Shown piece by piece: positions 2,141 through 32,600 of a DNA stretch of 64,000 nucleotides. Position 1 is the first letter of the stretch, and every line of letters begins with the position of its first letter. Source of the stretch: an uncultured bacterium (GTDB lineage: Bacteria; Patescibacteriota; Saccharimonadia; Saccharimonadales; 2-12-FULL-41-12); contig CAWIAU010000001.1 of assembly GCA_963834265.1 (NCBI GenBank), positions 263,572 to 327,571 of the forward strand. Direction: 5' to 3'. The notes below the pieces were generated by a model, which saw nothing but the letters and a program-made list of their open reading frames with translations, was not told the DNA's origin and searched no databases. Both the position numbers and the translations under genes were made by a program.

Positions 2141-2285
2141 AGTCCGAATGGCTTGACGTGGGTCTCTATGAGTCTCTCTGAAATAGTCCATTTTGTTCGT
2201 TAAAAATTTAGATAGTGCAAATCAACGTCAGTTTTTGAATTTGTTTTTTGAATGTCAGTTTACTGACGCTAAGAATTAAATTCTT

Positions 2286-3754
<1,469 letters not shown>

Positions 3755-3944
3755 CTAGGGAGAAAACTAGCACAAAATCGTAGCAATACATTTTGGAGCT
3801 AGGTCGGTCTTGGTACATCGTGAAATCAGTACTGACGATGTACATTTCCTTCATTATTGCTTGCGAGAATGAAGGACGAGATATCAGTTTCTGTAATATA
3901 GACTCGCACGTTTGATTTGCACTATCCAGATTTTTAACTAATAA

Positions 3945-3971
3945 GCGCCCCATGCGATAGGGTGCTTTTTT
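3945..3971 (+). terminator. rho-independent terminator downstream of 16S
   Basis: Stem GCGCCC (3945-3950) pairs with GGGTGC (3960-3965, one G-U pair) and is followed by T6 (3966-3971). It lies just after the 16S 3' processing-stem strand. Confidence 0.6.
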
Positions 3972-4015
3972 AGTACTCATGGTTAGCGGATAAAAATTTG
4001 CTATGCTGAGCCTAA

Positions 4016-4498
4016 ATGGCAGAGATAACACCCACTCCCCGAAAGCATAAATGGCATAATCTGGGAACTGATTTACTAAAAGTTACGGTAGCTGCCTTTT
4101 CAGATAGAATTGGTGATCAGCCGGGCGATTTATCTTTGGAGAGTTACGAAGCTAGCTTATTAAAGGCACTCCCAGATGCCGCACACCGGAGGCAGCAATT
4201 AATTGCGGGGCTTCAAGACCAGGCATTTGCCCAGCGGTTTCGTGCGCTTCCTTGGAGCAACCAAAATTTCATTGCTGCCCACTTGGCGCAAGCAGGCCCA
4301 ATGAGGGTAGGCCATTTAGCAATCAGGTTAGCGCAATTAGCGGGCGGCGAAACAGAGCACCTTAATGATGCGCATGTAGTTATAAATTTCTACGACACTA
4401 TCCACCGTGCCGATGTCATACCTGCTTTGCAAACCCTCAGTACATTAGTTGTTGCCAACAGTATGGATTTGCCGTCTCGGCATCCTGCTAATTCTTAA
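4016..4498 (+). CDS. hypothetical protein (160 aa)
   Basis: ATG ORF with no competing frame and no family I recognise. An extended -10 (TGcTATGCT, 3999-4007) sits 8 nt upstream of the ATG, suggesting a leaderless transcript. Confidence 0.45.
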   Translation: MAEITPTPRKHKWHNLGTDLLKVTVAAFSDRIGDQPGDLSLESYEASLLKALPDAAHRRQQLIAGLQDQAFAQRFRALPWSNQNFIAAHLAQAGPMRVGHLAIRLAQLAGGETEHLNDAHVVINFYDTIHRADVIPALQTLSTLVVANSMDLPSRHPANS

Positions 4499-4642
4499 GA
4501 AGTTAGCTTGATTTGGCGCTGGCTAGAATTTTAACAAGAAAAGTTCTCTCATGCAGGATGTTTTTAAAATTTATAACGGATCCAAAACTGAAATTATGTT
4601 TCTATACGTGCTACCCTGAACATACGCTCAGCATTTCGAAGA

Positions 4643-4837
4643 TTACAGTGGGCAACTAAATAGATACCTACCTTTATCTTTTATTAATCGTTTACGGTGA
4701 TATTGTGCGAAAGTAACTTCACCCTTAAAGTCCTTGTACTTGATGGGTATTTGACCATTTCTTTTTAAGGCGCTAGATATAAGGCTAATTTTACGCGATA
4801 ATGTACAATCTTTACCATAAATTATCATTTGCATCAA
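4643..4837 (-). pseudogene. degenerate duplicate of the HNH-nuclease C-terminal module
   Basis: Translation ..GKDCTLSRKISLISSALKRNGQIPIKYKDFKGEVTF..RLIKDKGRYLF is about 85% identical to residues ~118-160 of the upstream HNH protein. It lacks the HNH core. Confidence 0.6.
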
Positions 4838-5103
4838 AGTTTCTACTAAAAATTTTTAGATAATTTTATTCTCATTTGCAATAACTTCTCGCAAAAACAG
4901 TTTATCTTTTATTAATCGTTTCGGTGATATTGTGCGGAAAGTAACTTTACCCTTAAAGTCCTTGTACTTGATGGGTATTTGACCATTTCTTTTTAAGGCG
5001 CTAGATATAAGGCTAACTTTACGCGATAGTGTGGGATCCTTGCCATAATTATCATTGGCATCAAAGTCTCTACTGAAAATTTTTAGATGATCTTTATTCT
5101 CAT
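4648..5103 (-). repeat. tandem duplication, 2 x 228 bp (~90% identity)
   Basis: Segment 4676-4875 aligns with 4904-5103 at an offset of 228 bp. The unit covers the 3' third of the HNH gene. Confidence 0.8.
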
Positions 5104-5368
5104 GGCAGTTCTTGCAAAGAGTCGTTAAGTTGGCAAATGTATTACTGCCACCCAAACTCAAAGGTGTCTTATGGTCTACGGTAAGCTCATAATTTTTACC
5201 GCAACTTGTGCATCTATGTCCATCACGTTCCAACACCTTTTGACGAATAGTATCCCAGTAGCCACCTTTCGTAAGTCCTTTACCCTCTACGGGTTGCGTC
5301 CAAATATTAGACGAACTTTTTTCTGAAGCTATAAGGGTCTGCTTTTTTACTGCTGGCTTTGTGGCCAT
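4856..5368 (-). CDS. HNH endonuclease
   Basis: RDGHRCTSCGKNYELTVDHKTPLSLGGSNTFANLTTLCKNCHENK matches the HNH (His-Asn-His) signature with Cys pairs. A basic C-terminal module (IPIKYKDFKGKVTFRTISPKRL) is probably DNA-binding. Confidence 0.85.
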   Translation of the reverse strand: MATKPAVKKQTLIASEKSSSNIWTQPVEGKGLTKGGYWDTIRQKVLERDGHRCTSCGKNYELTVDHKTPLSLGGSNTFANLTTLCKNCHENKDHLKIFSRDFDANDNYGKDPTLSRKVSLISSALKRNGQIPIKYKDFKGKVTFRTISPKRLIKDKLFLREVIANENKII

Positions 5369-5448
5369 TCTAAATTAGTTGCTTTACCACCGTATAGCTC
5401 TTTATTGTCAGCTTCTTCCAGTCGTATGACAGTATCCATTTGTGGTTA

Positions 5449-5939
5449 TTATAGCTGAACCACGGGCTTTTGATAGAGAGCGGAGGTTGGTAAGTATTGT
5501 GTGAATTCTTTTGTGGCGATTTGTTTGAAGCCTTGGCTTGCGTAGTAGGTGCAAAGACTTATATTCTTCACATTGCAGTCTAGCCGCAGGTATTTTCGCT
5601 TCTTGCTTGTAACCTGCTCGGCTGTCCACTCGATGATTTGTTTGCTAAGTTGCTGGCCATGGTAACCGTCAGCGATGGCGAGACGGTGAATGTATCCGGC
5701 ATTATTTTCCTGATCATCCTCCCATGCATCCTCGTTCCACTCTAACGCTACTGTTCCTGCAAGATTATTTGTACGATAAGTACGCGCAAAAATGTGCTGC
5801 TGACAATCAAACGTATAATTCCATCGTTGCTAGAGCCATTTTTCCACAATCATCGTATTTATGATTGTATTTTGCACTTGTTACGAAAAGCTAATATAGT
5901 TTTTATATCATGAATACTCGCAGGTAGAACATTAATCAT
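5449..5939 (-). pseudogene. GNAT N-acetyltransferase, disrupted
   Basis: The N-terminus MINVLPASIHDIKTILAF.. starts at ATG 5939 and hits a stop at 5859-5861. A second in-frame stop lies at 5830-5832. The downstream frame reads ..AGYIHRLAIADGYHGQQLSKQIIEW..LRLDCNVKNISLCTYYASQGFK.. (GNAT acetyl-CoA motif) to the stop at 5449-5451. Confidence 0.7.
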
Positions 5940-6360
5940 ACTTTTAGTATACAAAAATAGCTGGTGAATATGCTTCTGCACGATGTAGACAGTTGGCTGG
6001 AGCTTAACAGCAGAATAGAGAGCCTCCGTGACCCGCAAGGACAATTCGATCTTTTTGCTCCCGTATTTTTGTAGTGTATTTGTCGTAGCAGGTAGCAAGG
6101 AGCATCCAGATGTCGGAATCGCTTCGCTTTCTTCCGGATAATCTGTAGATGTAGCGGCGACTGTGCCGTAACAATTTTGTCAACTTCGGAAAGCATTCTA
6201 TAATGTATTGTTCGGCCAGTGCTTCAGTTATCATTTCTTCTGTTTCGCCACCGTGAGTTCGCTCTAATTCAAGTTCTTCAGCCTCTGTTAAGCGCTCGTT
6301 GGAAAGCTTAAGTTGATAACATCTTTCCGTGACTTAAGACCCTGCCGTATTATGCTAATG

Positions 6361-6748
6361 TTAGTCGGCACATCCTTGACCGCCTTGGTTCGTTACAAAA
6401 GCAAAGTCAAAGTGATTGTCTTCGAATGGAATGTTTAGGATTGTACCTTGCTGGTTGTGAAGCGATTTCCAGCCCCAGCCTGCCTGTTTTCTTCCTGACC
6501 CATCTCTACCAGAAATTCAAGAAGCTCGACCCCTTCAATGCGGCAGCCAGTGCGAGCTAAAAGTTTACGACTTAAACCACCATTGGCGCAGCCAATGTCT
6601 AGTACCGTCAATGTTTGCTAACACCGTGTTTTGCAGCGAGGTTTAATATTGTATCCCTGGGCGGGGGATTACAGCTGATATCTCCTTCGTCGTAAAGATC
6701 CCCAACTCCTTTGGAGTATACGTCTTTTGCTTCAATTTTATTTGTCAT
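6361..6748 (-). pseudogene. class I SAM-dependent methyltransferase, frameshifted and truncated
   Basis: ATG at 6748 gives MTNKIEAKDVY..AAKHGVSKH*. Motif I VLDIGCANGG lies in another frame. ILNIPFEDNHFDFAFV (post-II/III region) lies in a third frame. That implies at least 2 frameshifts. Confidence 0.7.
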
Positions 6749-6943
6749 AGCTAATTCAGCCTTTCTGAATAATTAAAAAAGTGTTTTCAATGAATTAGCT
6801 CTGAATCATGATGAGTATATTGTAACAGGGGACGATTAGAGAGTAAAAGTACATCTCTGCAATCATTTTCGGATGTTGACGTAATTCAGTAACTCTAAGC
6901 ATAATGAGTGCGGATGAAACAAGAATATTGATTTGAAGCTAAC

Positions 6944-7200
6944 GTGGAGCTTTTCACGCAGGATGACGGCTGGCACTACGCTAAAGTTGCAGCCAAACTC
7001 AGTAAACCCTGGAAATTCTGGCAGACCGTGGGTTGATTGCTGTTCAGGCTACCGTTGGCATGTCATCGTGGCTAACATCACTTTTGCCATACGGCGACGG
7101 TTCGCACTTTATTGCCCTGCCTGCCAAAGTACGTAAAAAAGAGAGTATCGGGTTAGGGGATATGATGAAGATCAGCTTTGAACTTCGCGAACGTAAATAA
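6944..7200 (+). pseudogene. DUF1905-like small protein, frameshifted
   Basis: One frame reads VELFTQDDGWHYAKVAAKLSKPWKFWQTVG*. Around 7025-7035 the reading shifts to ..VQATVGMSSWLTSLLPYGDGSHFIALPAKVRKKESIGLGDMMKISFELRERK*. The family assignment is from memory of the DUF1905 pattern. Confidence 0.5.
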
Positions 7201-7342
7201 GCAGGAATTAGGCGAAGAGGGACAAACTCAGTATGTTAAATGCTGATTCTTTAATTTGATAATTAAAGTATGAATGGAGTTTGTAGCTAAGAATTAAGAA
7301 ACACAAGAAAACGGATTTCAATGTTTATATTTAAATAACTTA

Positions 7343-7371
7343 TTGACAATTTATCCATTAATATATATAGT
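7343..7371 (+). promoter_or_regulatory. near-consensus sigma70 promoter
   Basis: TTGACA (7343-7348), a 17-nt spacer, then TATAGT (7366-7371). Confidence 0.55.
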
Positions 7372-7407
7372 TTGAATGTTATTTTAAGTATATTTTTGGA
7401 GATAGAA

Positions 7408-7872
7408 ATGGCTTTTAAAAGAGCAGATGCCGAAAGAAGAGGACTAGAAAAAGGTACAGTAGTTTACTTTATTGATGGAGAAAATGATTATATAGATTCC
7501 GATTCAGATCGGAAAGTTGTCAAAAAAGGAGTTTTGACCGAAGATCCATCCAGAAAACATTTTCCCTCGGTGATAATTCAAAAGTCACCCGAACAAGGAA
7601 TCAACGAAACTGGATTAGGAGTATCAAAATCTCACGATGAAATATTTACTGGTCATGAAATTATATCAGCTTTGAACCGCTATGGCAGACTACCAGTCAA
7701 CGGCGAACTACCCGATAATGCGGTAGGTGAAATAGACAATATCATTACCAACCCGCTAGGTAATTACATGTTAGTAATGGTTTTGGGCAGCATGGCGGCG
7801 ATAAGTCATCAAAGTGAGCATATCGGAATAGATGGGTTCGCCGAAACAGGTATGCCTAAGCTACCTAGCTAA
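7408..7872 (+). CDS. hypothetical protein (154 aa)
   Basis: ATG at 7408 is preceded by GGAGAT, 30 nt downstream of the promoter. The longer TTG-start ORF from 7372 would begin within or upstream of the predicted transcription start. AT-rich and no recognisable family. Confidence 0.5.
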   Translation: MAFKRADAERRGLEKGTVVYFIDGENDYIDSDSDRKVVKKGVLTEDPSRKHFPSVIIQKSPEQGINETGLGVSKSHDEIFTGHEIISALNRYGRLPVNGELPDNAVGEIDNIITNPLGNYMLVMVLGSMAAISHQSEHIGIDGFAETGMPKLPS

Positions 7873-7883
7873 TATTTTTGATT

Positions 7884-8009
7884 TGGTGGGCGATGAGGGA
7901 CTCGGTCACGTTCCGCGACCCCGAAACTTGCGTCTTTGAAAACTAGTTTCCAAGAGAATATTTCCTTGCGAAATGCCACTGGCATTTCTCACCTCCGGCC
8001 TCGTCATTA
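7884..8009 (-). pseudogene. 3' portion of a disrupted tRNA-Ile paralog (with an 86-nt insert in the T-loop)
   Basis: 7884-7904 is identical (21/21) to the 3' end of the intact tRNA-Ile (8057-8077). 7991-8009 matches the anticodon 3' stem, variable region and T stem at 18/19. The two pieces are separated by 7905-7990. Confidence 0.7.
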
Positions 8010-8056
8010 GCTCCGGATAAAGTACCGGATATATTTAACAATCAATGAATCTCAAC

Positions 8057-8133
8057 TGGTGGGCGATGAGGGACTCGAACCTCCGACCTCGTCATTATCA
8101 GTGACGCGCTCTAACCAGCTGAGCTAATCGCCC
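8057..8133 (-). tRNA. tRNA-Ile (anticodon GAU), CCA encoded
   Basis: Hand-folded cloverleaf: acceptor GGGCGAT/ATCGCCC, D arm GCTC-AGCTGGTTA-GAGC, anticodon arm CGTCA-CTGATAA-TGACG, T arm GGAGG-TTCGAGT-CCCTC, then ACCA. Confidence 0.93.
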
Positions 8134-8173
8134 ACAGTTGAGAGATATTGATTCTACATTGTTAAATAGCATC

Positions 8174-8204
8174 GACGCGCTCTAACCATCTGAGCTAATC
8201 GCCC
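8174..8204 (-). pseudogene. 5' portion (positions ~1-31) of the disrupted tRNA-Ile paralog
   Basis: The tRNA-matching part of this fragment has a single mismatch to its counterpart in the intact tRNA-Ile (8103-8133). With 2 nt of flank, 8174-8206 vs 8103-8135 is 32/33. Similarity ends at the anticodon stem. Confidence 0.7.
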
Positions 8205-8496
8205 ACGTTTTTGTGAAGTAATGTGGTGGAGACGCCAGCCTTGCGGCTAGCATCCCCATAAATTAATAGTGAGCGGCGGGACAGCTGACTTCGTCCTTTT
8301 CCACTGCAGCCATGCATCACTACGTTCTTCCCTGTGATGCTCGATAAAATTGAGTAAACTCCATTTTATCTGCGCTTCTCGTTCACCGGAGCGAGCTCCT
8401 GTGCGTGGCTTTGCTTCACCGAACCCCGTCCTTCGGACATTCGGGGTTCTCGTAACACTTAACCAAATTCTTTATGCCTGGGAGGCATATATAATT

Positions 8497-8573
8497 TGGT
8501 GGAGCGACGGGGACTCGAACCCCGGACCCCCTGCTTGCAAAGCAGGTGCTCTAGCCAACTGAGCTATCGCCCC
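8497..8573 (-). tRNA. tRNA-Ala (anticodon UGC), CCA encoded
   Basis: Cloverleaf: GGGGCGA/TCGCTCC with the G3-U70 identity pair, anticodon arm CCTGC-TTTGCAA-GCAGG, T arm CGGGG-TTCGAGT-CCCCG. Confidence 0.95.
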
Positions 8574-8774
8574 TCGTACCAAATATAGCTGTAATTGGGG
8601 TCTTAAGCCCAAAGTTACCTCAGTAATTCTACAGAAAAACCTCTGATACCACAAGGTAAGTCAATGGGAAGGTGGTCCAGGTGTTAAATTATATGCGCAG
8701 TATAACTAATTTATGCTTACCAGCCTAAATTGTAACAGCTACCAAACTGTAGTAATTTTGGCATCACAAAATGC

Positions 8775-8803
8775 TTGACCGCCCCTGTTATTCTTGCTAA
8801 GCT
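8775..8803 (+). promoter_or_regulatory. candidate promoter for the 23S-5S unit
   Basis: TTGACC (8775-8780), a 17-nt spacer, then TAAGCT (8798-8803) with a TGc extension. It shares the cTTGACC -35 with the 16S promoter. Confidence 0.45.
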
Positions 8804-9102
8804 ATAGGTTACCTTGAGTTTAGGCCCGAGATTTAGTTTCTAGACCTCCAGCGTAAACTTCAGGTTCAAGCAGTTAAGGGTGAGATTATTACCTTGTGCT
8901 CATAAGAATCCGGAGTTTTGTAACTTAAAAATTTGGCTGACATTAGTTTTAAGAGTTTACTAGAGCAGTAAACTCGAAATATAAACGGCATTGTTATTGG
9001 TTATTACCAATAACTAGTCAAATGCATAATGTAATGAGTCGCCGAAGGCAATCATCAAATCAAAGCGTTTTCGAATTTACTTCGAAAAAAGCTTTTCTTC
9101 TT

Positions 9103-9160
9103 AGGAAAAAGAGCAGCGCAGCGATGAGAAAAAACCTGAGGTTTTGTCTCATTATGTTCG
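9103..9160 (+). repeat. structured motif copy A (immediately upstream of the 23S 5' end)
   Basis: AGGAAAAAGAGCAGC-GCAGCGATGAGAAAAAACCTGAGGTTTTGTCTCATTATGTTCG. Homologous to copies B and C. Confidence 0.7.
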
Positions 9161-9439
9161 TAAAAAGTTAATTAAGCGCACAAAATGGATGCCTTGACGT
9201 AAGATACCGATGAAGGACGTAGAAGGCTGCGAAAAGCTTCGGGGAGCTGCCAATCAAGCTTTGAACCGAAGATATCCGAATGGGGAAACCCGGGTAGAGT
9301 AATGTCTATTCACCCGTAATTGAATTCATAGATTACGTGGCGGTAACCGTGGGAACTGAAACATCTTAGTACCACGAGGAAGAGAAAGTAAACAACGATT
9401 CCGGAAGTAGTGGCGAGCGAAACCGGAATAGCCCAAACC

Positions 9440-9655
9440 TTTTATTACTTTCGCACTCTTCACTCCGTGATTAAGCAATGAGAATTGCTGGTCCGTAGTG
9501 ATGAGTGTGAATAAGCTGGTAGGCGAATGTATAAGAGGGGTTGTGACATCACAAAAACCTTTTGTGGAAGTCCGGATTTATCCGGGTTTCTGCATAAGGG
9601 AGCAGGATCTACCATGTCCTGCATAAGGTTACAAATTGCTGAGCAAGTAGAACAG
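9440..9655 (+). other. 23S domain I expansion (~170 nt more than E. coli)
   Basis: About 215 nt lie between conserved GCGAAaccGGaatAGCCCA and GGAAAGacagGcc. My recalled E. coli alignment has about 45 nt there. Confidence 0.55.
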
Positions 9656-11040
9656 TTTGGAAAGACAGGCCAGAGACGGTGATAGCCCGGTATATTAAGT
9701 TTCAGCAACCTTATAATTTGTTTTGTCGAGTAAGTCGGGGCACGAGAAACCTTGACCGAATCCGGGACGACCACGTCCCAAGGCTAAATATATCTTACGA
9801 TCGATAGTGTACAAGTACCGTGAGGGAAAGGTTAAAAGAACCCCGTGAGGGGAGTGAAATAGATCCTGAAATTATGTGCGTACAAGGACTCGGAGCGGCT
9901 TTAGGGCTGTGACGGGGTGCTTTTTGTAGAACGATCCAACGAGTTACTGATATGTGCAAGCGTAAGTTATCTGACGGACGCGTAGTGAAAGCGAGCCTGA
10001 ATAGGGCGTGGAGATTTATCTCTTTAGTACATGTTAGTAGACCCGAAACCAAGTGACCTATCCATGGGCAGGTTGAAGCGTCGGTAAAACGACGTGGAGG
10101 ACCGAACCGTAGGGTGTTGCAAAACCCCCGGATGACCTGTGGATAGAGGTGAAATGCCAATCGAACTTGGAGATAGCTGGTTCTCCTCGAAATAGCTTTA
10201 GGGCTAGCGTTATGTTGTAGCAAGTGGGGGTAGAGCTCTGTTTCGGAATGGGGCCCGCAAGGGTACCCACCCTTGACAAACTACGAATACCATTTGTGTA
10301 ATCATGGCAGTTAGAACGTCGGTGCTAAGATCGGCGCTCGAAAGGGAAACAGCCCAGACCATCAGCTAAGGTCCCTAAATATACACTCAGTGGGAAACGA
10401 GGTGAGATTTCTTAAACAATGAGGATGTTGGCTTAGAAGCAGCCATTCATTTAAAGAGTGCGTAACAGCTCACTCATCAAGAGATCTTGCGCGGAAAATG
10501 TAACGGGGCTCAAGTGTATTACCGAAGCTATGGGTTCATATTTATATGAGCGGTAGAGGAGCGTTCCTCTCTGCGTTGAAGTGGAACTGTGAGGTTCTGT
10601 GGAGCGTGAGGAAGTGAGAATGTTGGAATGAGTAACCATAAGGCAGGTGAGAATCCTGCCCACCGAAAGAGCGAGGTTTCCTGGGCCACGATAATCGTCC
10701 CAGGGTTAGCCGGGCCTAAGCCGAGGCGCGTAGCGTAGGCGATGGACAACGGGTTAATATTCCCGTGCCGGCTGTGAATTGTTTGAAGTGCGCGGCATGT
10801 TAGCAAGAGCGGGTTCATGGTTATATCCGTCTAAACAGCGTAACAACTGTGAATGAAACGGTCTTTACTGATCGAATTCTTGTGAGGGTGCTGACCAGAA
10901 AAGCTTTCAAACGCGTGTTCACGGTTGACCGTACCGCAAACCGACACAGGTGCTCAGGTCGAGAAGACCAAGGTGTACGAGTGATTCTTCGTTAAGGAAC
11001 TCGGCAATACAGCGACCGTAACTTCGGGATAAGGTCTGCC

Positions 11041-11301
11041 CCGTCACAGTGTTTATCACTGCGGCTTGAGAATGTAGCGCCAGTTTTCTTTTCAGAAAAC
11101 AACAGAAGCGATGATGAGTTTTTAACTTCTCTAAAGTCGCCCTGTATAAACGAGTAAAAAAGATTCTGTCTGATACTTCAATTCCTTCGCCGGAAGCTTC
11201 GGCTTTGGCATGGAAGCGATAGTGTCCGATAGAATTTCATTGAGATTGAGAAGAAAGCTGACCTCTATAAGCACATACTTTGGTAAGTACTGTGACGGGG
11301 C
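11041..11301 (+). other. 23S helix-63-region expansion / possible intervening sequence (~260 nt)
   Basis: Closed by an 11-bp stem CCGTCACAGTG (11042-11052) / TACTGTGACGG (11289-11299). It replaces a helix of about 45 nt between GGGAtAAGG.. and ..AACTGTTTAccAAAAACACAG. Confidence 0.6.
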
Positions 11302-12181
11302 CGCAGCTAAGGAACCCATGGAACTGTTTACCAAAAACACAGGTCTCTGCTAACACGAAAGTGGATGTATAGGGGCTGACTCCTGCCCGGTGCCGGAAGG
11401 TTAAGGGGAGCGCTTTACGGTGCGAACTGAAGCCCCGGTGAACGGCGGCGGTAACTATAACCGTCCTAAGGTAGCGAAATTCCTTGTCAGGTAAGTTCTG
11501 ACCTGCACGAATGGAGTAATCATATGGGTACTGTCTCAACGAAGAGCTCGGTGAAAGTGCATTGACGGTAAAGATGCCGTCTGTCCGCAGCAGGACGAAA
11601 AGACCCTGTGCAGCTTTACTACAGCTTGACATTGAATCGAGCTGCAACATGTGTAGTATAGTTGGGAGACTTTGAAGCCCGGACGCTAGTCCGGGTGGAG
11701 TCGTTAGTGAAATACCAACCTTGTTGTAGTTTTATTCTTACCGAACCCTTTATGGGTAAATAAGATATTTATTTTGTTTATCTATACAGGGTTCGGAACC
11801 GTGTCTGGTGGGTAGTTTAACTGGGGCGGTTGCCTCCTAAAGAGTAGCGGAGGCGTTCAAAGGTTGGCTAGTTACGGATGGAAATCGTAATGATAGTGCA
11901 TACGCATAAGCCAGCTTGACTGTGAGGCCTACAAGCCAAGCAGGGACGAAAGTCGGAGTAAGTGATCCGCTGTCCTTACATTTATGTAAATGAACGTGGG
12001 ATCGACAGCGCAAACGGATAAAAGTTACGCCAGGGATAACAGGCTTATAGCGCCCAATAGTTCACATAGACGGCGCTGTTTGGCACCTCGATGTCGGCTC
12101 ATCTCATCCTGGAGGGGGAGCACCTTCCAAGGGTCCGGCTGTTCGCCGGTTAAAGAGGTACGTGAGCTGGGTTCAGAACGT

Positions 12182-12595
12182 AAATTACATTGCGTTCTAC
12201 TCTCGAGAGGGAGTAATGTGCTGATTAACATCGAATCATTAGCACTAAAACTAACTAAAATCGGTGAAACCCTATCTGGATTCGAACGTTCTAGAGGGCG
12301 ATACCGAGGGTAAGCGCCAGTGTAATGCTGGTTTGATCCCGTAGAGACTGATCTGGAAAACTTGCCTAGTAAGCATGTGGAACAGTGAGAATGATTGCTT
12401 TTGCAAGATTTCATACGTTAGCCCCTTAACTATTACAACTTAGGTTAAGGGTGAAGATATAGTCCACGCCAATAGTAATATTGGATAAAGCTCGCTCTTT
12501 GTCTTAATAGGGAAAAGGAGCAGCCCGACAAAATGTATTCCATTTTGCCGGCGCGATGAGGAAAAACCGCAGGTTGTTCCTCATGAGTGTACGTG
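12182..12595 (+). mobile_element. group I intron (414 nt, no ORF) inserted after 23S U2593 (E. coli numbering)
   Basis: The exon junction restores GGGTTCAGAACGT|CGTGAGACAGTTCGG. The 5' exon ends in U and the intron ends in G (12595). The internal guide GCGTTCT (12192-12198) pairs with exon AGAACGT, including a U-G pair. An S-element AAGATATAGTCC-like core (GAAGATATAGTCC ~12453-12466) and a P7 partner AGAGACTGA are present. Confidence 0.85.
12509..12595 (+). repeat. structured motif copy B (3' terminal domain of the group I intron)
   Basis: AGGGAAAAGGAGCAGC-[26-nt hairpin]-GCGCGATGAGGAAAAACCGCAGGTTGTTCCTCATGAGTGTACG. Confidence 0.7.
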
Positions 12596-13050
12596 CGTGA
12601 GACAGTTCGGTTTATATCCGCTGTGGACGTCAGGAAATTTGAGAGGATTTGCCCCTAGTACGAGAGGACCGGGGTGAACGCACCGCTGGTGTACCAATTG
12701 TCATACCAATGGCATCGTTGGGTAGCTATGTGCGGAACAGATAAGCGCTGAAAGCATATTAAGCGCGAAACTGACCTCAAGATTAGATTTCCCTATGAGG
12801 GCCCTGATAGACGATCAGGTTGATAGGTACACGGTGTACGCATAGCAATATGTTTAGCCTAAGTATACTAATAGCCCCACAGATTTTTTGTGAACCATGA
12901 GACCAATTTACTTCGGTGAGTTGATCTCATGGGAATGTATTTGGCTAGTTATTTGTAGTAACTAATAAACAACGTCCGTTTATATTAACTTTTGTCAGTC
13001 ATATCGACACCACATGGACACCGAGTGAGTGAGACTTACGCCTCCCTCCC

Positions 13051-13162
13051 TCGGTGCCCATGGCGCGAGGGAAACACCTGTTCCCATCCCGAACACAGCA
13101 GTTAAGCCTCGCAGCGGTTACAATACTTGGGTTTTAACCCTGGGAAAATAGCACGGTGCCGA
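13051..13162 (+). rRNA. rrf: 5S ribosomal RNA
   Basis: Helix I TCGGTGCC/GGTGCCGA. Conserved CCCATCCCGAACACAGCAGTTAAGCC (loop B/helix III region). 112 nt. Confidence 0.9.
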
Positions 13163-13173
13163 TTTATATAGAA

Positions 13174-18826: not shown

Positions 18827-21800
18827 ATGCTTTCTCAGCGACCACGATTCTATAACCTGTTGGTTAGGGGTAAATCCCTGGCATTAGTTTTCCTGCTCCT
18901 GTTTCTGACAGGAGTTTTTTCTTATACGCGCACGCATACACCTACGCCCGTATACGCGGCTACCTCTGCTAATATCAATTTTCAGGCCCGGCTCCAGTCA
19001 GCCAGCGGAGCTATCGTTCCGGACGGCAACTATCACATGGAGTTTAAACTTTATACATCTGCCAGCGGTGGCTCAGCTGTTTGGACTGAGACCCGAAGTA
19101 CCGGTAACCTAGTCAGAACAGTAAACGGTTATCTGACAGTAAATCTTGGCAGCGTAAACGCCTTTCCTTCCGGAATGAACTGGGATCAGGAACACTGGCT
19201 GACCATGAATGTTGGCGGAAGTGGCGGCTCTCCGGTCTATGATGGCGAAATGACACCCCGGCTCAAACTTACAGCCACACCGTACGCCTTTAGTGCCGGC
19301 CAGCTTCGCAAAACCCTTGGTGCAAACACCAGTGTCCTGGACTTCCTGAACCCGACTGCTAACAGGACGCTTAATCTACCGGATCAGGACGGTACTCTTT
19401 GTGTTCAGGGATCACCTGATTGTGTTGATGTGGCTACCACAGGGACTACTGCCACGACATCAAGCAATTCCGGATTGGAGATCGGTATTGATGGATTACG
19501 GCTATTGGGAGGTTGTAGCGATAACCAGTCACTCAAATGGGATGCAACCGCAGAAGAGTGGAAGTGTACCTCAGGTAGCGGATCGTCAATCGGCGTCCGT
19601 GAAAGCGACGGATCGCCCAGCATGTCAGCCGATGTTATAGAGTTTGGCCCGTCAGGCGCATCTGACAGCGAATTTATTGTTACGAACGAAGGCAGTGGTG
19701 TCAGCAGGATACGATTAGGAAACGACGTACTATTGCTCACTAACTATGCCGCTACACTCGACGCTACCTACGTAAACGAATCCCAGTCGCCGGCCGCCGG
19801 CGATGTCTCCGGTTCATTCACAGCCGGTTTCAGTGTTAACGATGTCCAGAACAATGCCGTTGATCTGGGAGCCGAGACAGTCGGGGACTACATGGCCAAC
19901 CTCGGCACCGTAGTCGGATTAACTATTACAGGCACTAACAGTGGCGAAGGCAGTACGCCGGGCCTTAGTGTTACTTACGGATTCGGTGCTAACACCGCCG
20001 TACAGGGCAGCACCCAGCTTACCTGTGCTTCCGGCAGTGGTGATCTGTCCGGTGGCGGCACTGTCATAACTCTGGGCAGCGGCGGTACCTGCGGTGCCAT
20101 AACCATATCCGAAGCCCCCGTCTTTGATACCAGCGTTACCACCCCGCTTATTACTTACGGCGGCGCCCTGACCATCCAGACCACCGCTACCGGTGGCGCT
20201 GATGATCTGATCTTTAAAACCGCCGGCACGGAAGTTATGCGCCTGCTGGAAAACGGCAATATTTATCTGGAGAAAGGCACTAATGATGTCACCATAGCCG
20301 TAAATGCTCCCGGTGCCGCCGCCACCTACACCTTTGACGGAGCCAGCGGAACTATCCTGACCACTGCCAACTACGTTACTAACCTCGACGCTACCTACGT
20401 AAACGAATCCCAGTCGCCGGCCGCCGGCGATGTCTCCGGTTCATTCACAGCCGGTTTCAGTGTTAACGATGTCCAGAACAATGCCGTTGATCTGGGAGCC
20501 GAGACAGTCGGGGACTACATGGCCAACCTCGGCACCGTAGTCGGATTAACTATTACAGGCACTAACAGTGGCGAAGGCAGTACGCCGGGCCTTAGTGTTA
20601 CTTACGGATTCGGTGCTAACACCGCCGTACAGGGCAGCACCCAGCTTACCTGTGCTTCCGGCAGTGGTGATCTGTCCGGTGGCGGCACTGTCATAACTCT
20701 GGGCAGCGGCGGTACCTGCGGTGCCATAACCATATCCGAAGCCCCCGTCTTTGATACCAGCGTTACCACCCCGCTTATTACTTACGGCGGCGCCCTGACC
20801 ATCCAGACCACCGCTACCGGTGGCGCTGATGATCTGATCTTTAAAACCGCCGGCACGGAAGTTATGCGCCTGCTGGAAAACGGCAATATTTATCTGGAGA
20901 AAGGCACTAATGATGTCACCATAGCCGTAAATGCTCCCGGTGCCGCCGCCACCTACACCTTTGACGGAGCCAGCGGAACTATCCTGACCACTGCCAACTA
21001 CGTTACTAACCTCGACGCTACCTACGTAAACGAATCCCAGTCGCCGGCCGCCGGCGATGTCTCCGGTTCATTCACAGCCGGTTTCAGTGTTAACGATGTC
21101 CAGAACAATGCCGTTGATCTGGGAGCCGAGACAGTCGGGGACTACATGGCCAACCTCGGCACCGTAGTCGGATTAACTATTACAGGCACTAACAGTGGCG
21201 AAGGCAGTACGCCGGGCCTTAGTGTTACTTACGGATTCGGTGCTAACACCGCCGTACAGGGCAGCACCCAGCTTACCTGTGCTTCCGGCAGTGGTGATCT
21301 GTCCGGTGGCGGCACTGTCATAACTCTGGGCAGCGGCGGTACCTGCGGTGCCATAACCATATCCGAAGCCCCCGTCTTTGATACCAGCGTTACCACCCCG
21401 CTTATTACTTACGGCGGCGCCCTGACCATCCAGACCACCGCTACCGGTGGCGCTGATGATCTGATCTTTAAAACCGCCGGCACGGAAGTTATGCGCCTGC
21501 TGGAAAACGGCAATATTTATCTGGAGAAAGGCACTAATGATGTCACCATAGCCGTAAATGCTCCCGGTGCCGCCGCCACCTACACCTTTGACGGAGCCAG
21601 CGGAACTATCCTGACCACTGCCAACTACGTTACTAACCTCGACGCTACCTACGTAAACGAATCCCAGTCGCCGGCCGCCGGCGATGTCTCCGGTTCATTC
21701 ACAGCCGGTTTCAGTGTTAACGATGTCCAGAACAATGCCGTTGATCTGGGAGCCGAGACAGTCGGGGACTACATGGCCAACCTCGGCACCGTAGTCGGAT

Positions 21801-24800
21801 TAACTATTACAGGCACTAACAGTGGCGAAGGCAGTACGCCGGGCCTTAGTGTTACTTACGGATTCGGTGCTAACACCGCCGTACAGGGCAGCACCCAGCT
21901 TACCTGTGCTTCCGGCAGTGGTGATCTGTCCGGTGGCGGCACTGTCATAACTCTGGGCAGCGGCGGTACCTGCGGTGCCATAACCATATCCGAAGCCCCC
22001 GTCTTTGATACCAGCGTTACCACCCCGCTTATTACTTACGGCGGCGCCCTGACCATCCAGACCACCGCTACCGGTGGCGCTGATGATCTGATCTTTAAAA
22101 CCGCCGGCACGGAAGTTATGCGCCTGCTGGAAAACGGCAATATTTATCTGGAGAAAGGCACTAATGATGTCACCATAGCCGTAAATGCTCCCGGTGCCGC
22201 CGCCACCTACACCTTTGACGGAGCCAGCGGAACTATCCTGACCACTGCCAACTACGTTACTAACCTCGACGCTACCTACGTAAACGAATCCCAGTCGCCG
22301 GCCGCCGGCGATGTCTCCGGTTCATTCACAGCCGGTTTCAGTGTTAACGATGTCCAGAACAATGCCGTTGATCTGGGAGCCGAGACAGTCGGGGACTACA
22401 TGGCCAACCTCGGCACCGTAGTCGGATTAACTATTACAGGCACTAACAGTGGCGAAGGCAGTACGCCGGGCCTTAGTGTTACTTACGGATTCGGTGCTAA
22501 CACCGCCGTACAGGGCAGCACCCAGCTTACCTGTGCTTCCGGCAGTGGTGATCTGTCCGGTGGCGGCACTGTCATAACTCTGGGCAGCGGCGGTACCTGC
22601 GGTGCCATAACCATATCCGAAGCCCCCGTCTTTGATACCAGCGTTACCACCCCGCTTATTACTTACGGCGGCGCCCTGACCATCCAGACCACCGCTACCG
22701 GTGGCGCTGATGATCTGATCTTTAAAACCGCCGGCACGGAAGTTATGCGCCTGCTGGAAAACGGCAATATTTATCTGGAGAAAGGCACTAATGATGTCAC
22801 CATAGCCGTAAATGCTCCCGGTGCCGCCGCCACCTACACCTTTGACGGAGCCAGCGGAACTATCCTGACCACTGCCAACTACGTTACTAACCTCGACGCT
22901 ACCTACGTAAACGAATCCCAGTCGCCGGCCGCCGGCGATGTCTCCGGTTCATTCACAGCCGGTTTCAGTGTTAACGATGTCCAGAACAATGCCGTTGATC
23001 TGGGAGCCGAGACAGTCGGGGACTACATGGCCAACCTCGGCACCGTAGTCGGATTAACTATTACAGGCACTAACAGTGGCGAAGGCAGTACGCCGGGCCT
23101 TAGTGTTACTTACGGATTCGGTGCTAACACCGCCGTACAGGGCAGCACCCAGCTTACCTGTGCTTCCGGCAGTGGTGATCTGTCCGGTGGCGGCACTGTC
23201 ATAACTCTGGGCAGCGGCGGTACCTGCGGTGCCATAACCATATCCGAAGCCCCCGTCTTTGATACCAGCGTTACCACCCCGCTTATTACTTACGGCGGCG
23301 CCCTGACCATCCAGACCACCGCTACCGGTGGCGCTGATGATCTGATCTTTAAAACCGCCGGCACGGAAGTTATGCGCCTGCTGGAAAACGGCAATATTTA
23401 TCTGGAGAAAGGCACTAATGATGTCACCATAGCCGTAAATGCTCCCGGTGCCGCCGCCACCTACACCTTTGACGGAGCCAGCGGAACTATCCTGACCACT
23501 GCCAACTACGTTACTAACCTCGACGCTACCTACGTAAACGAATCCCAGTCGCCGGCCGCCGGCGATGTCTCCGGTTCATTCACAGCCGGTTTCAGTGTTA
23601 ACGATGTCCAGAACAATGCCGTTGATCTGGGAGCCGAGACAGTCGGGGACTACATGGCCAACCTCGGCACCGTAGTCGGATTAACTATTACAGGCACTAA
23701 CAGTGGCGAAGGCAGTACGCCGGGCCTTAGTGTTACTTACGGATTCGGTGCTAACACCGCCGTACAGGGCAGCACCCAGCTTACCTGTGCTTCCGGCAGT
23801 GGTGATCTGTCCGGTGGCGGCACTGTCATAACTCTGGGCAGCGGCGGTACCTGCGGTGCCATAACCATATCCGAAGCCCCCGTCTTTGATACCAGCGTTA
23901 CCACCCCGCTTATTACTTACGGCGGCGCCCTGACCATCCAGACCACCGCTACCGGTGGCGCTGATGATCTGATCTTTAAAACCGCCGGCACGGAAGTTAT
24001 GCGCCTGCTGGAAAACGGCAATATTTATCTGGAGAAAGGCACTAATGATGTCACCATAGCCGTAAATGCTCCCGGTGCCGCCGCCACCTACACCTTTGAC
24101 GGAGCCAGCGGAACTATCCTGACCACTGCCAACTACGTTACTAACCTCGACGCTACCTACGTAAACGAATCCCAGTCGCCGGCCGCCGGCGATGTCTCCG
24201 GTTCATTCACAGCCGGTTTCAGTGTTAACGATGTCCAGAACAATGCCGTTGATCTGGGAGCCGAGACAGTCGGGGACTACATGGCCAACCTCGGCACCGT
24301 AGTCGGATTAACTATTACAGGCACTAACAGTGGCGAAGGCAGTACGCCGGGCCTTAGTGTTACTTACGGATTCGGTGCTAACACCGCCGTACAGGGCAGC
24401 ACCCAGCTTACCTGTGCTTCCGGCAGTGGTGATCTGTCCGGTGGCGGCACTGTCATAACTCTGGGCAGCGGCGGTACCTGCGGTGCCATAACCATATCCG
24501 AAGCCCCCGTCTTTGATACCAGCGTTACCACCCCGCTTATTACTTACGGCGGCGCCCTGACCATCCAGACCACCGCTACCGGTGGCGCTGATGATCTGAT
24601 CTTTAAAACCGCCGGCACGGAAGTTATGCGCCTGCTGGAAAACGGCAATATTTATCTGGAGAAAGGCACTAATGATGTCACCATAGCCGTAAATGCTCCC
24701 GGTGCCGCCGCCACCTACACCTTTGACGGAGCCAGCGGAACTATCCTGACCACTGCCAACTACGTTACTAACCTCGACGCTACCTACGTAAACGAATCCC

Positions 24801-29680: not shown

Positions 29681-32600
29681 ATGTATCAAGAAACTCAAAC
29701 CAAAAGCCGTTCCAGAGTGTACGTTACCGTAGGTGATGCGGCGGAGCTATTAGGTGTTTCTATCGATACTGTCCGACGTTGGGAAAAGAGCGGCAAACTG
29801 CATGCTAAACGATTAGATGGCAAGAATCGATACTTCCCCAAAGATGAATTAGAGCAATTCAGAGCTCATCAGCCCCTGTCTACAACAGAAGTGGCTAAGC
29901 GACTTAAGACCTCTGCTTCCAGCGTACGTCGTCTCGAAGCTAGTGGCCAGATAACGGCTGACCGTGCTGAGAACGGAAAGCGTCTTTACTCTTTGGCAAG
30001 TATAGTTGACTATTTGGAAAGTAAATCTGCTCCATTGCAACCAGCAATATCAGATAAACAGGAATTAGCGTCAGGTGTAGCCCTGAATCAGGTAACACCG
30101 ATGCCGGCACTGACTATCGCACCGCCACCGCGTCAACATACCCCGCGTCATGGATTAAAGCATCATTTACAGCAGCCTAAGAAGTTATGGGCTACTCATT
30201 CCGGCAGATTAAATTACCATATTTTTCAAAAAGTAATCATCTATAGTGCTACGGCATGTGTCTCCGTAGTGATGATATTGACGCTATTCTTTCTGATGTT
30301 TCCGGGAACTGCCCGCACGACATTTTATAATCAATCCCATAACAGTGGTAAACAGTTTGTTTCGAAACAAGCTGACGGTCTCTTAGTACGGGCCTTCAAG
30401 CCCTTTACAAATGCAGCCCTGGGCGTTGTCGAGGTAGTTAACCCGGAAGTCCGCAATACTATTCAGCCTAGGGCCATAGATGACGTGAATGAAGTATTCG
30501 CGCCTGACTCGCAGGGAAATATTATCACCAGGTACACCTTTAGCCCGCCGAACTCATCTTATCTGAAGATACCAGATCAGGGGTTAGTTACAAATCTGAA
30601 TAGTGAATTTGTCGGAGGCTATAAACCGGGCGAAAAGAAAGGAGATCTGGCTATCTTACCTCTGGGAGGTGATCAGCTTAAAGATAAGTCACTTAATGGT
30701 GACCAGCTGGCCGATGGAGCAATTAAGCTTAGCCATCTTTCTCCTACTTTGATAGCTTCTCTGAAGAGCGGAGGCACAGGAGGAAGTACTTTTGTAAGCG
30801 GTGCTGGCAGCGCCGGACCAGCAGGCCCATCAGGAGTTAACGGGGCGGCTGGAGCTGCAGGTGCCAACGGTGCTCCCGGTTCTCAAGGAGTAGCAGGTCC
30901 AGCCGGAGCAGCCGGACCTGCTGGATCACAAGGAGCTAACGGGGCACCGGGTGCTCCAGGAGCACAAGGCCCGACTGGTCCGCAAGGACCTCCAGGCGCT
31001 GGAGCTACGATAGCCTTGCAAGAGTCTGACGGTAGTCCGCTGGTTAGCGGCGTATCAAACATACAGTTTGGACCCACCAGCAACTCTTCTGACGAGTTTA
31101 TCCTGACAGACTTAACAGGAGGTCAGGTACGAATACAACTGGGCACTACGGTGCTTCTAACAACGAATTACACTACTACTCTGGATCCTATATATCTCAA
31201 TATTGGAGAATCTCCCGGGATCGGAGATATTACGGGCAGCTTCAGCGGGGGTTTGCAGGTAGCACCTGATGCGGTGGCGCTAGGTACCGATACCACTGGT
31301 AATTATTTAACTACTCTATCTGGCAGCACGGGTCTAATTGTCAGTGGATCGGGTTCAGAAAATGCGGCAGCTAGCATTGCTTTAGACGTAGTTACTACTG
31401 GTACAACAGGATTGTCCAGTGCCAACTCCGGGCTTGAGTTGGGTCCCGACGGTCTGCGTTTGCTTGGTGGATGCGCAACAAACCATGTATTGAAATGGAA
31501 CGGAACTACTTGGGCATGTGCTACCGATAACAGTAGTAGCGCTGCTGATGTTAAGGAAAATGGTGTAATTATTACTCCCACAGCAACAGCTATAGATTTT
31601 TTCGGTTCAGATTTTAATGTAACCAACAATGTTACGCAGGCAAATATAGCATTAGATTATATTAACTCGGGAATTACTCGTCGCACGGGGGCAGAGATAA
31701 TAAGCGGCAACTGGGCATTTAATGATAATAGCTTTACGCTGCAAGATAATGCTGACTCTAGTAAAAAACTTGCAATAGAATTATCGGGAATTACAACAGG
31801 AACAACGCGTACTTTAACAGCCCCAAACGCCAGCGGGACCATCATTAGCACGGGGAATTTAACTGACATTGTAAATGTGGGTACGCTCACAAGCGGTGTT
31901 TGGCAGGGTTCTGTTGTAGCCGTGCAGTATGGGGGAACAGGGGCCAACACCTTTACGTCTAACGGATTGCTATATGGAAATGGCAACAGTGCTGTACAGG
32001 CCACATCCGCGGGCACGGCCGGACAATTATTAGTTGCAAATGCTAGCAGTGTACCAACGTTTGCTACTCTATCGGGTGATGCGACCTTATCTGGCGCCGG
32101 CCTGCTAACATTAGCTAACTCGGGCGTTACAGCAAATACTTATGGAAGCTCAACTCAGGTACCGGTTTTTGCGGTTGACTCAAAAGGTAGAATCACTAAT
32201 GTAACTAATACAACAATAACAGGGGTCGCACCGGGTGGAACCGCCGGAGGTGATTTGAGTGGAACTTATCCCAACCCAAGCGTTTCAAGAATCAATGGAG
32301 TCGCTCTTGGTAGTACAACGGCAACGGGAGGAAATTTGCTGCTTGCCAATGGTACAAGCTGGGTCAGTCAAGCTCTTTCGGGAGATTTAAGTGTAAATGG
32401 GGCAGGCGTTGCCTCGATAGCAAACAACGCCATCAGTACCTCAAAAATTTTGGACGCCAATGTAACAAACATTAAATTAGCAAACTCCTCCTTAACAGTT
32501 ATGGCTGGAACAGGATTATCTGGCGGAGGAGCTATAAGTTTAGGTGGCACGACTACGCTTAACTTAGCTAATACGGCTGTATCGGCAGGGAGTTACGGCA

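Follow-up and report, generated by a model that had tools for sequence, protein, structure and literature searches.

The locus described here raises the question of how an intact transfer RNA (tRNA) gene comes to lie within the broken remains of a second copy of itself. The window that was analysed comprises 64,000 nucleotides (nt), positions 263,572–327,571 of contig CAWIAU010000001.1 (GCA_963834265.1), and the features of the locus are situated on its minus strand. An intact tRNA-Ile(GAU) gene is bracketed there by the pieces of an outer tRNA-Ile copy, the T loop of which is interrupted by an 86-nt insert, designated element E. E belongs to a conserved, multi-copy family with a four-way-junction fold, and many tRNA genes of the Saccharibacteria are flanked by their own truncated copies bearing this one conserved 86-nt fold at T54/T55. 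The evidence tilts slightly towards regarding the window as a degenerate, two-sided case of that recurrent arrangement, i.e. an intact tRNA bracketed by truncated duplicates, with E in the T loop of a duplicate.

A single intact tRNA-Ile(GAU) gene was identified by ARAGORN at 8133–8057 (Rfam, 67.1 bits), in addition to a tRNA-Ala(UGC) gene at 8573–8497 (70.6 bits), which is the first of the co-oriented cluster. The former is presumed to be a working gene; it is identical at 77 of 77 positions to the tRNA-Ile of nine Saccharibacteria genomes (L015, L083, L120, L008, L103, L082, L070, L068 and L005). The outer copy begins with a 5′ fragment at 8204–8174, which matches linear positions 1–31 of tRNA-Ile with one mismatch (97% identity in blastn). 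Faint similarity extends to approximately position 40, and a weak Rfam tRNA match (20.4 bits) covers 8139–8204. A 40-nt spacer follows (8173–8134), the 3′ 29–32 nt of which constitute a leader arm extending the acceptor stem of the inner tRNA. Beyond the intact gene lie the trailer arm of the same stem (8056–8035) and a 25-nt spacer containing a TATCCGG direct repeat (8034–8010). The remainder of the outer copy is in two parts. The first (8009–7991, linear positions 37–55 by repeat search and blastn) covers the 3′ half of the anticodon loop, the 3′ strand of the anticodon stem, the variable loop, the 5′ strand of the T stem and T54. The second (7904–7884, 21/21 identical to the inner tRNA) supplies the 3′ part of the T loop, the 3′ strands of the T and acceptor stems, and ACCA. 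The 86-nt core of E occupies 7990–7905, between T54 and C56.

In the repeat search, 8167–8206 was 90% identical to 8096–8135, 7991–8009 was 95% identical to 8079–8097, and 7884–7904 was 100% identical to 8057–8077. An inverted repeat that brackets the inner tRNA (8040–8058 and 8135–8153) was found to be 84% complementary. For a 22-mer of the repeat, 0 matches were expected in shuffles, and fragments of 19–31 nt at 95–100% identity cannot be of chance origin. The outer fragments bear substitutions of their own (A16, G32, A33 and a C at the variable loop). An initial annotation of this locus, made from the sequence, had reported the coordinates of the fragments, the intact tRNA-Ile(GAU) gene and the 86-nt gap in the T loop, and all of these were confirmed by ARAGORN, Rfam and the repeat search. 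Its statement that the outer copy is short by only about 5 nt near the anticodon also holds, positions 1–31(34) and 37–77 being present. The nested order that it described was recovered as well, but the upstream spacer is 40 nt long and not 36 nt.

Relatives of E were first obtained by a short-word BLAST comparison of the 86-nt insert with tRNA-Ile loci, which placed it at the same site in other Saccharibacteria, just downstream of the last tRNA of an Ala/Ile pair. The insert is located between GGAGGT and CAAGTCCCTC, from the tRNA-Ile T arm, in L028 and L099, and between GGGT and CGAGTCCCC, from the tRNA-Ala T arm, in L091 and L032. Compensatory changes were observed in 20 of the 37 pairs predicted from the first five sequences, and a covariance model (R1) was built from those five. 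R1 gave further copies in L029, L015 and L120 (two in the last) and, on the sequences searched, 110 matches at E-values ≤1e-6 in 88 sequences. A hidden Markov model of the cores was run with nhmmer against 241 sequences, of which 128 gave a total of 158 copies; no contig had more than three, and the window had a single one. The core in the window scored 117.8 bits with R1 (E-value 8e-34), and the nhmmer match, at 7905–7993, had an E-value of 1e-20. A pattern derived from the cores was present in at least 120 metagenome contigs. These contigs carry no taxonomic label, and the genome collection gave no very close relative among the matches listed. Among the named genome loci listed, E was found only in those labelled as Saccharibacteria, except for L029, which was deposited as Rhodoglobus and is probably a mis-binned contig. 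The initial annotation had noted hairpins in the insert; these are indeed present, and the insert is not local debris but a conserved structured element that occurs in more than 120 independent contigs.

A phage origin for E was considered and rejected, as a scan of viral contigs with the core-derived pattern yielded no copy. Assignment of the 86 nt to a known ribozyme or riboswitch was likewise abandoned: at E, Rfam 15 returned only tRNA, both in the window, even at E-values up to 10, and in ten other E-bearing contigs. No description of E was found in the literature searched (tRNA introns, repeats, pseudogenes and structured RNAs; Saccharibacteria/Patescibacteria), the coverage of which was incomplete. 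E is not described in a survey of group I introns (PMC13011429 and the accompanying preprint) or in the 224-motif paper (PMC5737381), and the family is apparently undescribed.

The model fold, derived from 106 distinct sequences, consists of three hairpins, P2, P3 and P4, closed by the T stem. In that alignment, 94.7% of cells were paired and 31 of the 37 pairs had changed on both sides. When the partners were slid by 1–3 columns, 27–48% were paired, and none of 500 shuffles matched the observed values. Conservation extends to the junction nucleotides GGUGAG, CGCAAGG and CGGG, to a GAA loop, and to a G.U pair in P4 that is invariant (103/103). G.U mispairs outnumber A.C mispairs (124 vs 53), which argues that E folds on the tRNA-sense strand, either as RNA or as single-stranded DNA.

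Inserts of related or similar appearance were also seen. A longer E variant, with another middle hairpin (GGCCGGAAGCCGG...) and an extended last hairpin, was observed in L155 (4139–4523), L174, L127, L142, L207 and L230; ordinary E copies are situated inside the last hairpin of this variant, giving nested or tandem E arrays. A second type of insert, a GC-rich hairpin of approximately 30 nt (CCTGCCCGTC...GACAGGCGGG), is present at 918–947 and 1139–1168 of L153 and upstream of tRNA-Gln in L181 and L214, where it breaks the D arm or the variable region of broken tRNA copies. The D loops in L162, L168, L213 and L220 are interrupted by other short hairpins.

It is apparent that the truncated tRNA copies bearing E (E units) are arranged in a regular manner. 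An intact tRNA gene on the same strand was located at one of two stereotyped offsets in 103 of 129 pattern instances, the orientation of E was always that of the tRNA, and E units were associated with 25 isoacceptors. Insertion was mostly between G53-T54 and T55-C56: among the mapped cases, G52/G53 closes the left flank in 61, and position 55/56 opens the right flank in 67. There were few insertions in D, anticodon or variable loops. The flanks of E were usually 100% identical to the neighbouring tRNA.

Two types of unit were distinguished. In the downstream type, a terminator-like hairpin begins at the CCA of the intact tRNA. The variable/T-arm region is found next to it in antisense orientation, after which the variable loop and the 5′ strand of the T stem recur in sense orientation, up to GGT. 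E is located at this point, and the unit continues with the remaining 3′ portion of the T loop, the 3′ strands of the T and acceptor stems, and NCCA; a second terminator is often present beyond these. In the upstream type, a copy of the promoter region and of tRNA positions 1 to approximately 54 precedes E, which is followed by approximately 8–13 nt of T arm, an antisense copy, and the promoter and intact tRNA. The antisense T-arm piece was detected in the spacers of 51 of 66 downstream and 21 of 32 upstream units, as compared with 3/66 and 1/32 for shuffled spacers. The 3′ flank usually matches the tRNA at 100% as far as the end of NCCA, and the sequence just beyond it is unrelated. The high identity of the fragments in the window had been taken to imply a recent event, which need not follow, the 3′ fragment being usually 100% identical to the neighbouring tRNA at other loci also. 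In L047 (221–302), from the closest 16S relative listed (91.5%), a 16-nt repeat of the tRNA-Ile 3′ end (CCCTCATCGCCCACCA) lies 66 nt downstream of that gene without E, and may be the remnant of a lost unit.

E units were found on both sides of 11 tRNAs. One of these is the tRNA-Val of L131, where the outer pieces, positions 1–53 and 56–77, enclose E, the intact tRNA-Val and a second E. In view of these 11 cases, a nested appearance is a regular outcome for E. The nested layout, of which the initial annotation knew no description, is not unique: intact tRNAs flanked by their own truncated copies are the rule for this element.

The possibility that E is an intron of working tRNA genes was examined by removing it in silico. 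A tRNA was then called by ARAGORN in only 6 of the 129 instances, five of which adjoin the same tRNA in intact form, and an intron of working genes was therefore rejected. Introns do provide an obvious comparison, since group I introns in bacterial tRNA anticodon loops are frequent in the Patescibacteria (PMC13011429). Like E, they are structured RNAs that interrupt tRNA-like genes in loops, and they occur in the same phylum. Group I introns are also known from the T loop of transfer-messenger RNA genes. E differs from them in being 86 nt long, in having no group I core and in residing in host copies that are truncated, for which reason its removal does not restore a tRNA. A search for the group I core (RF00028) at 7850–8300 gave no match, even at E-values up to 10, the only match in the region being in the 23S gene.

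A more extreme version of this idea treats the outer copy as a working tRNA gene, either split or containing two intervening sequences, which would be matured by splicing, or by pairing of the halves, once the inner tRNA had been excised. All four arms are represented in the outer pieces, and the anticodon stem can pair (CGTCG/TGACG). When the outer pieces were joined in silico, ARAGORN reported a cloverleaf in 76 of 160 junction variants. A GAU anticodon, however, was present in 0 of the 40 ARAGORN calls listed for the joined copy, T55 is missing, and there is no group I core. The multi-intron, split or permuted tRNA genes of archaea resemble the window in that both the T loop and the anticodon loop are sites of interruption of the tRNA body, the pieces of which could pair. 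They differ in that the host here is bacterial, as is the rRNA in the window, and in that E-bearing copies are truncated across the family and redundant: the outer copy type is not the sole source of its tRNA, an intact copy being adjacent in 103/129. To our knowledge, there is no splicing endonuclease in the Saccharibacteria group. A spliced or split tRNA is accordingly regarded as very improbable.

Attachment (att) sites of integrases were also considered. The repeats of islands, prophages and tycheposons share several features with E loci, namely a direct repeat of the 3′ portion of an intact tRNA, situated downstream of it, a breakpoint in the T loop, and arrays of remnants. The classes of integrase sublocation at tRNA genes set out by Williams in 2002 reportedly include the T loop. 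In contrast to att repeats, E loci have neither integrase nor cargo. The repeats are separated by 65–90 nt at other loci and by 47 nt plus E in the window (47–90 nt overall), and no open reading frame (ORF) fits there. The structured E is located inside the T loop of the repeat and not between the repeats, and an antisense T-arm piece is found at the junction. The lack of an integrase or cargo in the intervening sequence, and the duplication of 5′ parts and promoter regions as well, mean that E units are not ordinary remnants of prophage or island att sites.

It was of interest, therefore, to determine how the particular layout of the window arose, and in this regard the inverted repeat around the inner tRNA is informative. 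The spacers had been described as imperfect inverted repeats that extend the acceptor stem, and this is correct: they are 84% complementary, 8035–8056 is predicted to pair with 8137–8165, and the segment 8030–8170 folds at −52.4 kcal/mol (z −5.3). The same repeats had also been proposed to bound a tRNA-bearing cassette. In L064 (5800–6045), L090 (6770–7025), L083 (5190–5460), L041 (3140–3392), L073 and L153 (750–880), however, the leader and trailer of tRNA-Ile also pair and extend the acceptor stem, with sequences that differ from genome to genome and covary, and relatives without outer fragments have the pairing as well. As judged from these predicted pairings, the inverted repeat of the window is shown to be the ordinary leader-trailer stem of the lineage, and the interpretation as cassette ends was discarded. 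By analogy with rRNAs, such a stem may serve in the processing of the precursor.

The outer 5′ fragment starts 19 nt past an Ala-type minihelix (GGGGATG-hairpin-CGTCTCC-ACCA; 8257–8224; fold −26.3 kcal/mol, z −7.7), which is the site of the intact tRNA-Ile in relatives. In L153, an intact tRNA-Ile with its stem is followed by a full-length tRNA-Ile copy split by a 30-nt hairpin and E, and then by a third copy, which is incomplete and begins only within the anticodon loop. Partial copies from the anticodon loop are likewise present in L173 and L188, 47–52 nt past the CCCACCA end (47 nt in the window), with no 5′ fragment upstream. Where other loci have a 5′ fragment ahead of an intact tRNA, its end falls within positions 17–30; as these end positions are unrelated, the 5′ fragments are regarded as independent units. 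The site of the 5′ fragment, the tandem in L153, the copies in L173 and L188, and the separate 5′ units lead us to interpret the window as two independent partial copies around a working gene. A tRNA-Ile at the ancestral position, just past the Ala minihelix, would have been duplicated and would then have lost its 3′ half, leaving 8204–8174, and the downstream unit, 8009–7884, would be an E-bearing partial copy starting in the anticodon loop, like those in L153, L173 and L188. The meeting of the two breakpoints at the anticodon loop would, in that event, be a coincidence of two events and not the footprint of a single cassette. The initial annotation had offered either a cassette or a 'complex duplication or rearrangement scar'; the cassette ends were not substantiated, whereas the second option comes close to the comparative data. 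It had also named a tandem-duplication intermediate in relatives as a finding that would speak against a nested insertion, and L153, with its intact tRNA-Ile and adjacent full-length, E-disrupted copy, contains one.

Several observations weigh against two independent copies. The outer breakpoints are no more than approximately 5 nt apart, as a single nested insertion would predict. In the spacer at 8010–8034, both the terminator hairpin and the antisense T-arm piece of typical units are absent. The 47-nt spacer of the window, furthermore, gave an alignment with the spacers of L153, L173 and L188 that appeared suggestive, but 333–1348 of 2000 shuffles scored as well. The similarity of the spacers is therefore not significant, and only the layout and the spacing are claimed to be common to the four loci.

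These points bear on the principal competitor, in which a segment of 137–164 nt, comprising the working tRNA-Ile and its leader-trailer stem, was inserted in one step into the anticodon loop of a full-length, E-bearing paralog. Such an event would explain why the breakpoints meet and why the outer pieces are complementary, with only about 5 nt missing, and it agrees with the folding of the joined pieces as a cloverleaf. The 5′ piece is at the tRNA-Ile site of the relatives, right past the minihelix; a full-length, E-disrupted tRNA-Ile does exist in L153; and E is sometimes found in anticodon loops, making that loop an insertion target in the lineage. The inverted repeat, however, is native to the tRNA-Ile of relatives that lack an outer copy, and neither a target-site duplication nor element ends can be recognized at the junctions. 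The partial copies of L153, L173 and L188 begin in the anticodon loop without an upstream 5′ fragment, and the 5′ fragments at other loci end at the unrelated positions mentioned above. Moreover, we know of no mechanism for moving a lone tRNA gene. A single nested insertion is thus considered unlikely.

An assembly artefact was also weighed, in which reads from the repeated copies of tRNA-Ile would have been joined into a chimera. The sole independent assembly found (Logan, ERR12037361) stops at the rRNA genes. Against an artefact, unique spacers separate the repeats, which measure just 19–31 nt, the outer fragments have their own substitutions, and more than 100 contigs of unrelated projects show this architecture as well. 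The probability of a chimeric join is considered very low.

The distribution of E bears on whether it moves. One cluster of cores at ≥88% identity adjoins 16 different isoacceptors, and the core in the window is closest (91–92%) to cores beside tRNA-His, tRNA-Thr and tRNA-Pro and not to other Ile-linked cores. The two copies on the L131 contig have an unusual P2 sequence in common, and in L155 E copies are nested in variant copies. On the basis of these sequence relationships, E is most likely a small mobile or converting structured element, the insertion of which accompanies partial duplication of the tRNA gene. It would be a non-autonomous mobile or gene-converting element aimed at tRNA-gene loop sequences. 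Insertion of E into a single-copy tRNA gene would be lethal, and the only survivors would be those products in which partial tandem duplication has preserved or restored an intact tRNA, which would be why no others are seen. As the antisense junction piece does not contain E, its template would seem to have been a complementary strand free of E, and it might have been formed by template switching at a stalled fork or by way of a hairpin-capped break or intermediate. An E copy outside a tRNA context was observed in L130 (1060–1560), where it is flanked by a direct repeat of approximately 40 nt of local sequence, which indicates target duplication around E again.

Certain data count against mobility. 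No filled-versus-empty pair of alleles was found among the sequences searched, nor was a partner protein, such as a transposase or a reverse transcriptase, identified; in the window there are only housekeeping genes, an HNH endonuclease and pseudogene fragments. For these reasons, we infer mobility from the distribution of E only. The conservation of the junction sequences and the invariant G.U pair resemble a working RNA more than a selfish repeat, and Ile-linked units are at the same position in several genomes, which suggests long persistence.

According to the corresponding alternative, E units are working RNA genes in which a tRNA-derived stem presents E, whether as a 3′-half mimic, a protein-binding or catalytic RNA, or a guide scaffold, and the fragments are retained as the RNA needs them. 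The strong covariation, the invariant G.U pair and the conserved junction nucleotides are in keeping with such a role, as are the identity of the 3′ flank up to, but not beyond, the NCCA, the constant orientation of E relative to the tRNA, and the recurrence of Ile-linked units. It is less readily reconciled with copies that are variously truncated, some of them nested (L155) and some with decayed flanks (L028 and L032), with near-identical cores beside unrelated tRNAs, or with upstream units that retain just 8–13 nt of the 3′ flank. We consider it possible, but improbable, that E units are genes of this kind. Were E a working RNA, it would represent a new and abundant class in its phylum.

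A proposal that combines movement and function, and to which we assign a lower probability still, regards E as a small functional RNA of a new class, homing to the loops of tRNA genes either as a guide-bearing scaffold or as a small catalytic RNA; the duplications and the antisense pieces would then result from its activity and not from chance decay. In the scaffold variant, the 3′ flank, from the tRNA T loop to CCA, would direct a nuclease or recombinase to E-free tRNA genes. The analogy is with the omega/reRNA scaffolds of TnpB, located at the right end of IS200/IS605 elements, in which a structured RNA at the end of the element abuts the target and a short 5′ motif would correspond to the adjacent motif in the empty site. 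By that same analogy, E would be shorter than known scaffolds, no tnpB was seen, and the flank of upstream units would be too short for a guide. If the proposal were true, tRNA genes bracketed by their own halves would be a regular product of RNA-guided or RNA-catalysed rearrangement in the Saccharibacteria.

Returning to E as a mobile or converting element, it can be compared with known small repeats. Miniature inverted-repeat transposable elements (MITEs), Rickettsia palindromic elements, Correia elements and the palindrome-associated elements of the IS200/IS605 family are, like E, short, non-coding, multi-copy and hairpin-rich. The ends of E (GGTGAG... and ...CGTGAC) are not inverted repeats, and the flanking tRNA has lost 0–2 nt at the insertion site, with none duplicated. 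E thus shares with MITEs its small size, lack of coding capacity and many dispersed copies, but not terminal inverted repeats or a target-site duplication. A possible resemblance to IS200/IS605 derivatives lies in the lack of terminal inverted repeats and of a short target duplication, in the hairpins near both ends (P2 and P4), in the fixed orientation and in the insertion 3′ of GGT, although adjacency to GGT was required by the search pattern itself. What sets E apart from IS200/IS605 and other small repeats is its four-way junction, the junction nucleotides of which are conserved, together with a central hairpin, P3, and the invariant G.U pair. Its target is a tRNA loop, the target is partially duplicated over a long stretch, and no cognate transposase was seen; neither a Y1 transposase nor TnpB was found in the 64-kb window. 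A working RNA would account for P3, the conserved junctions and the G.U pair no less well than an element of the IS200/IS605 type.

Saccharibacteria genomes are approximately 1 Mb in size and are thought to be streamlined, and few non-coding RNAs have been characterized in the phylum. If E is mobile, both its target, the most conserved loop of the tRNA gene, and its product, a partial target duplication with an inverted junction piece, would be unusual. There is also a practical consequence for annotation, in that E units will be taken for tRNA pseudogenes, introns or att sites.

Other features of the window and its relatives were noted. The minihelix between tRNA-Ala and tRNA-Ile is approximately 34 nt long (GGGG plus 3 nt, a covarying hairpin, and nnnCUCC-ACCA) and was also observed in L064, L090, L083, L099, L120, L029, L032, L153, L173, L188 and L235. 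It reproduces the acceptor stem of tRNA-Ala, with a G3:U70-type pair and the same CCA 3′ end, and has the appearance either of a naturally occurring alanine minihelix or of a tRNA-Ala copy that has undergone extensive deletion and is retained under selection. Together with the leader-trailer stems, it points to unexplored tRNA processing in the Saccharibacteria. The T stem of tRNA-Ile (GGAGG/CCCUC) contains an A51-C63 mismatch or, alternatively, has 4 bp and an 8-nt loop; since the same sequence is found in many Saccharibacteria, this oddity is a trait of the lineage and not damage.

The rRNA genes of the window are bacterial (16S, 2285–3754; 23S, 9161–12892, both on the plus strand; and 5S). 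The 16S sequence is 83–91.5% identical to those of the Saccharibacteria (TM7) assemblies listed, several of which have the gyrA-16S neighbourhood in common with the window. Within the rRNA region (2285–13164), the interval between the 16S and 23S genes is 5.4 kb, and both tRNAs are on the strand opposite to the rRNA genes. The interval also contains an HNH endonuclease gene (4856–5368, minus strand), a partial duplicate of its C-terminus (4643–4837, minus strand), a methyltransferase fragment (6435–6611) and a fragment of a DUF1905 protein (7033–7200). The 23S gene spans 3732 nt, as compared with the 2925 positions of the model, and therefore has one or more insertions; a group I intron-like match lies within it at 12172–12485, with a score of 38 bits that falls short of the curated cut-off. 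Farther along the window, two giant ORFs of 2853 and 3863 aa are situated at 18827–27388 and 29681–41272. The second of these contains a tandem repeat with a period of 993 nt, which is seen as evenly spaced antisense ORFs at 33883–39771.

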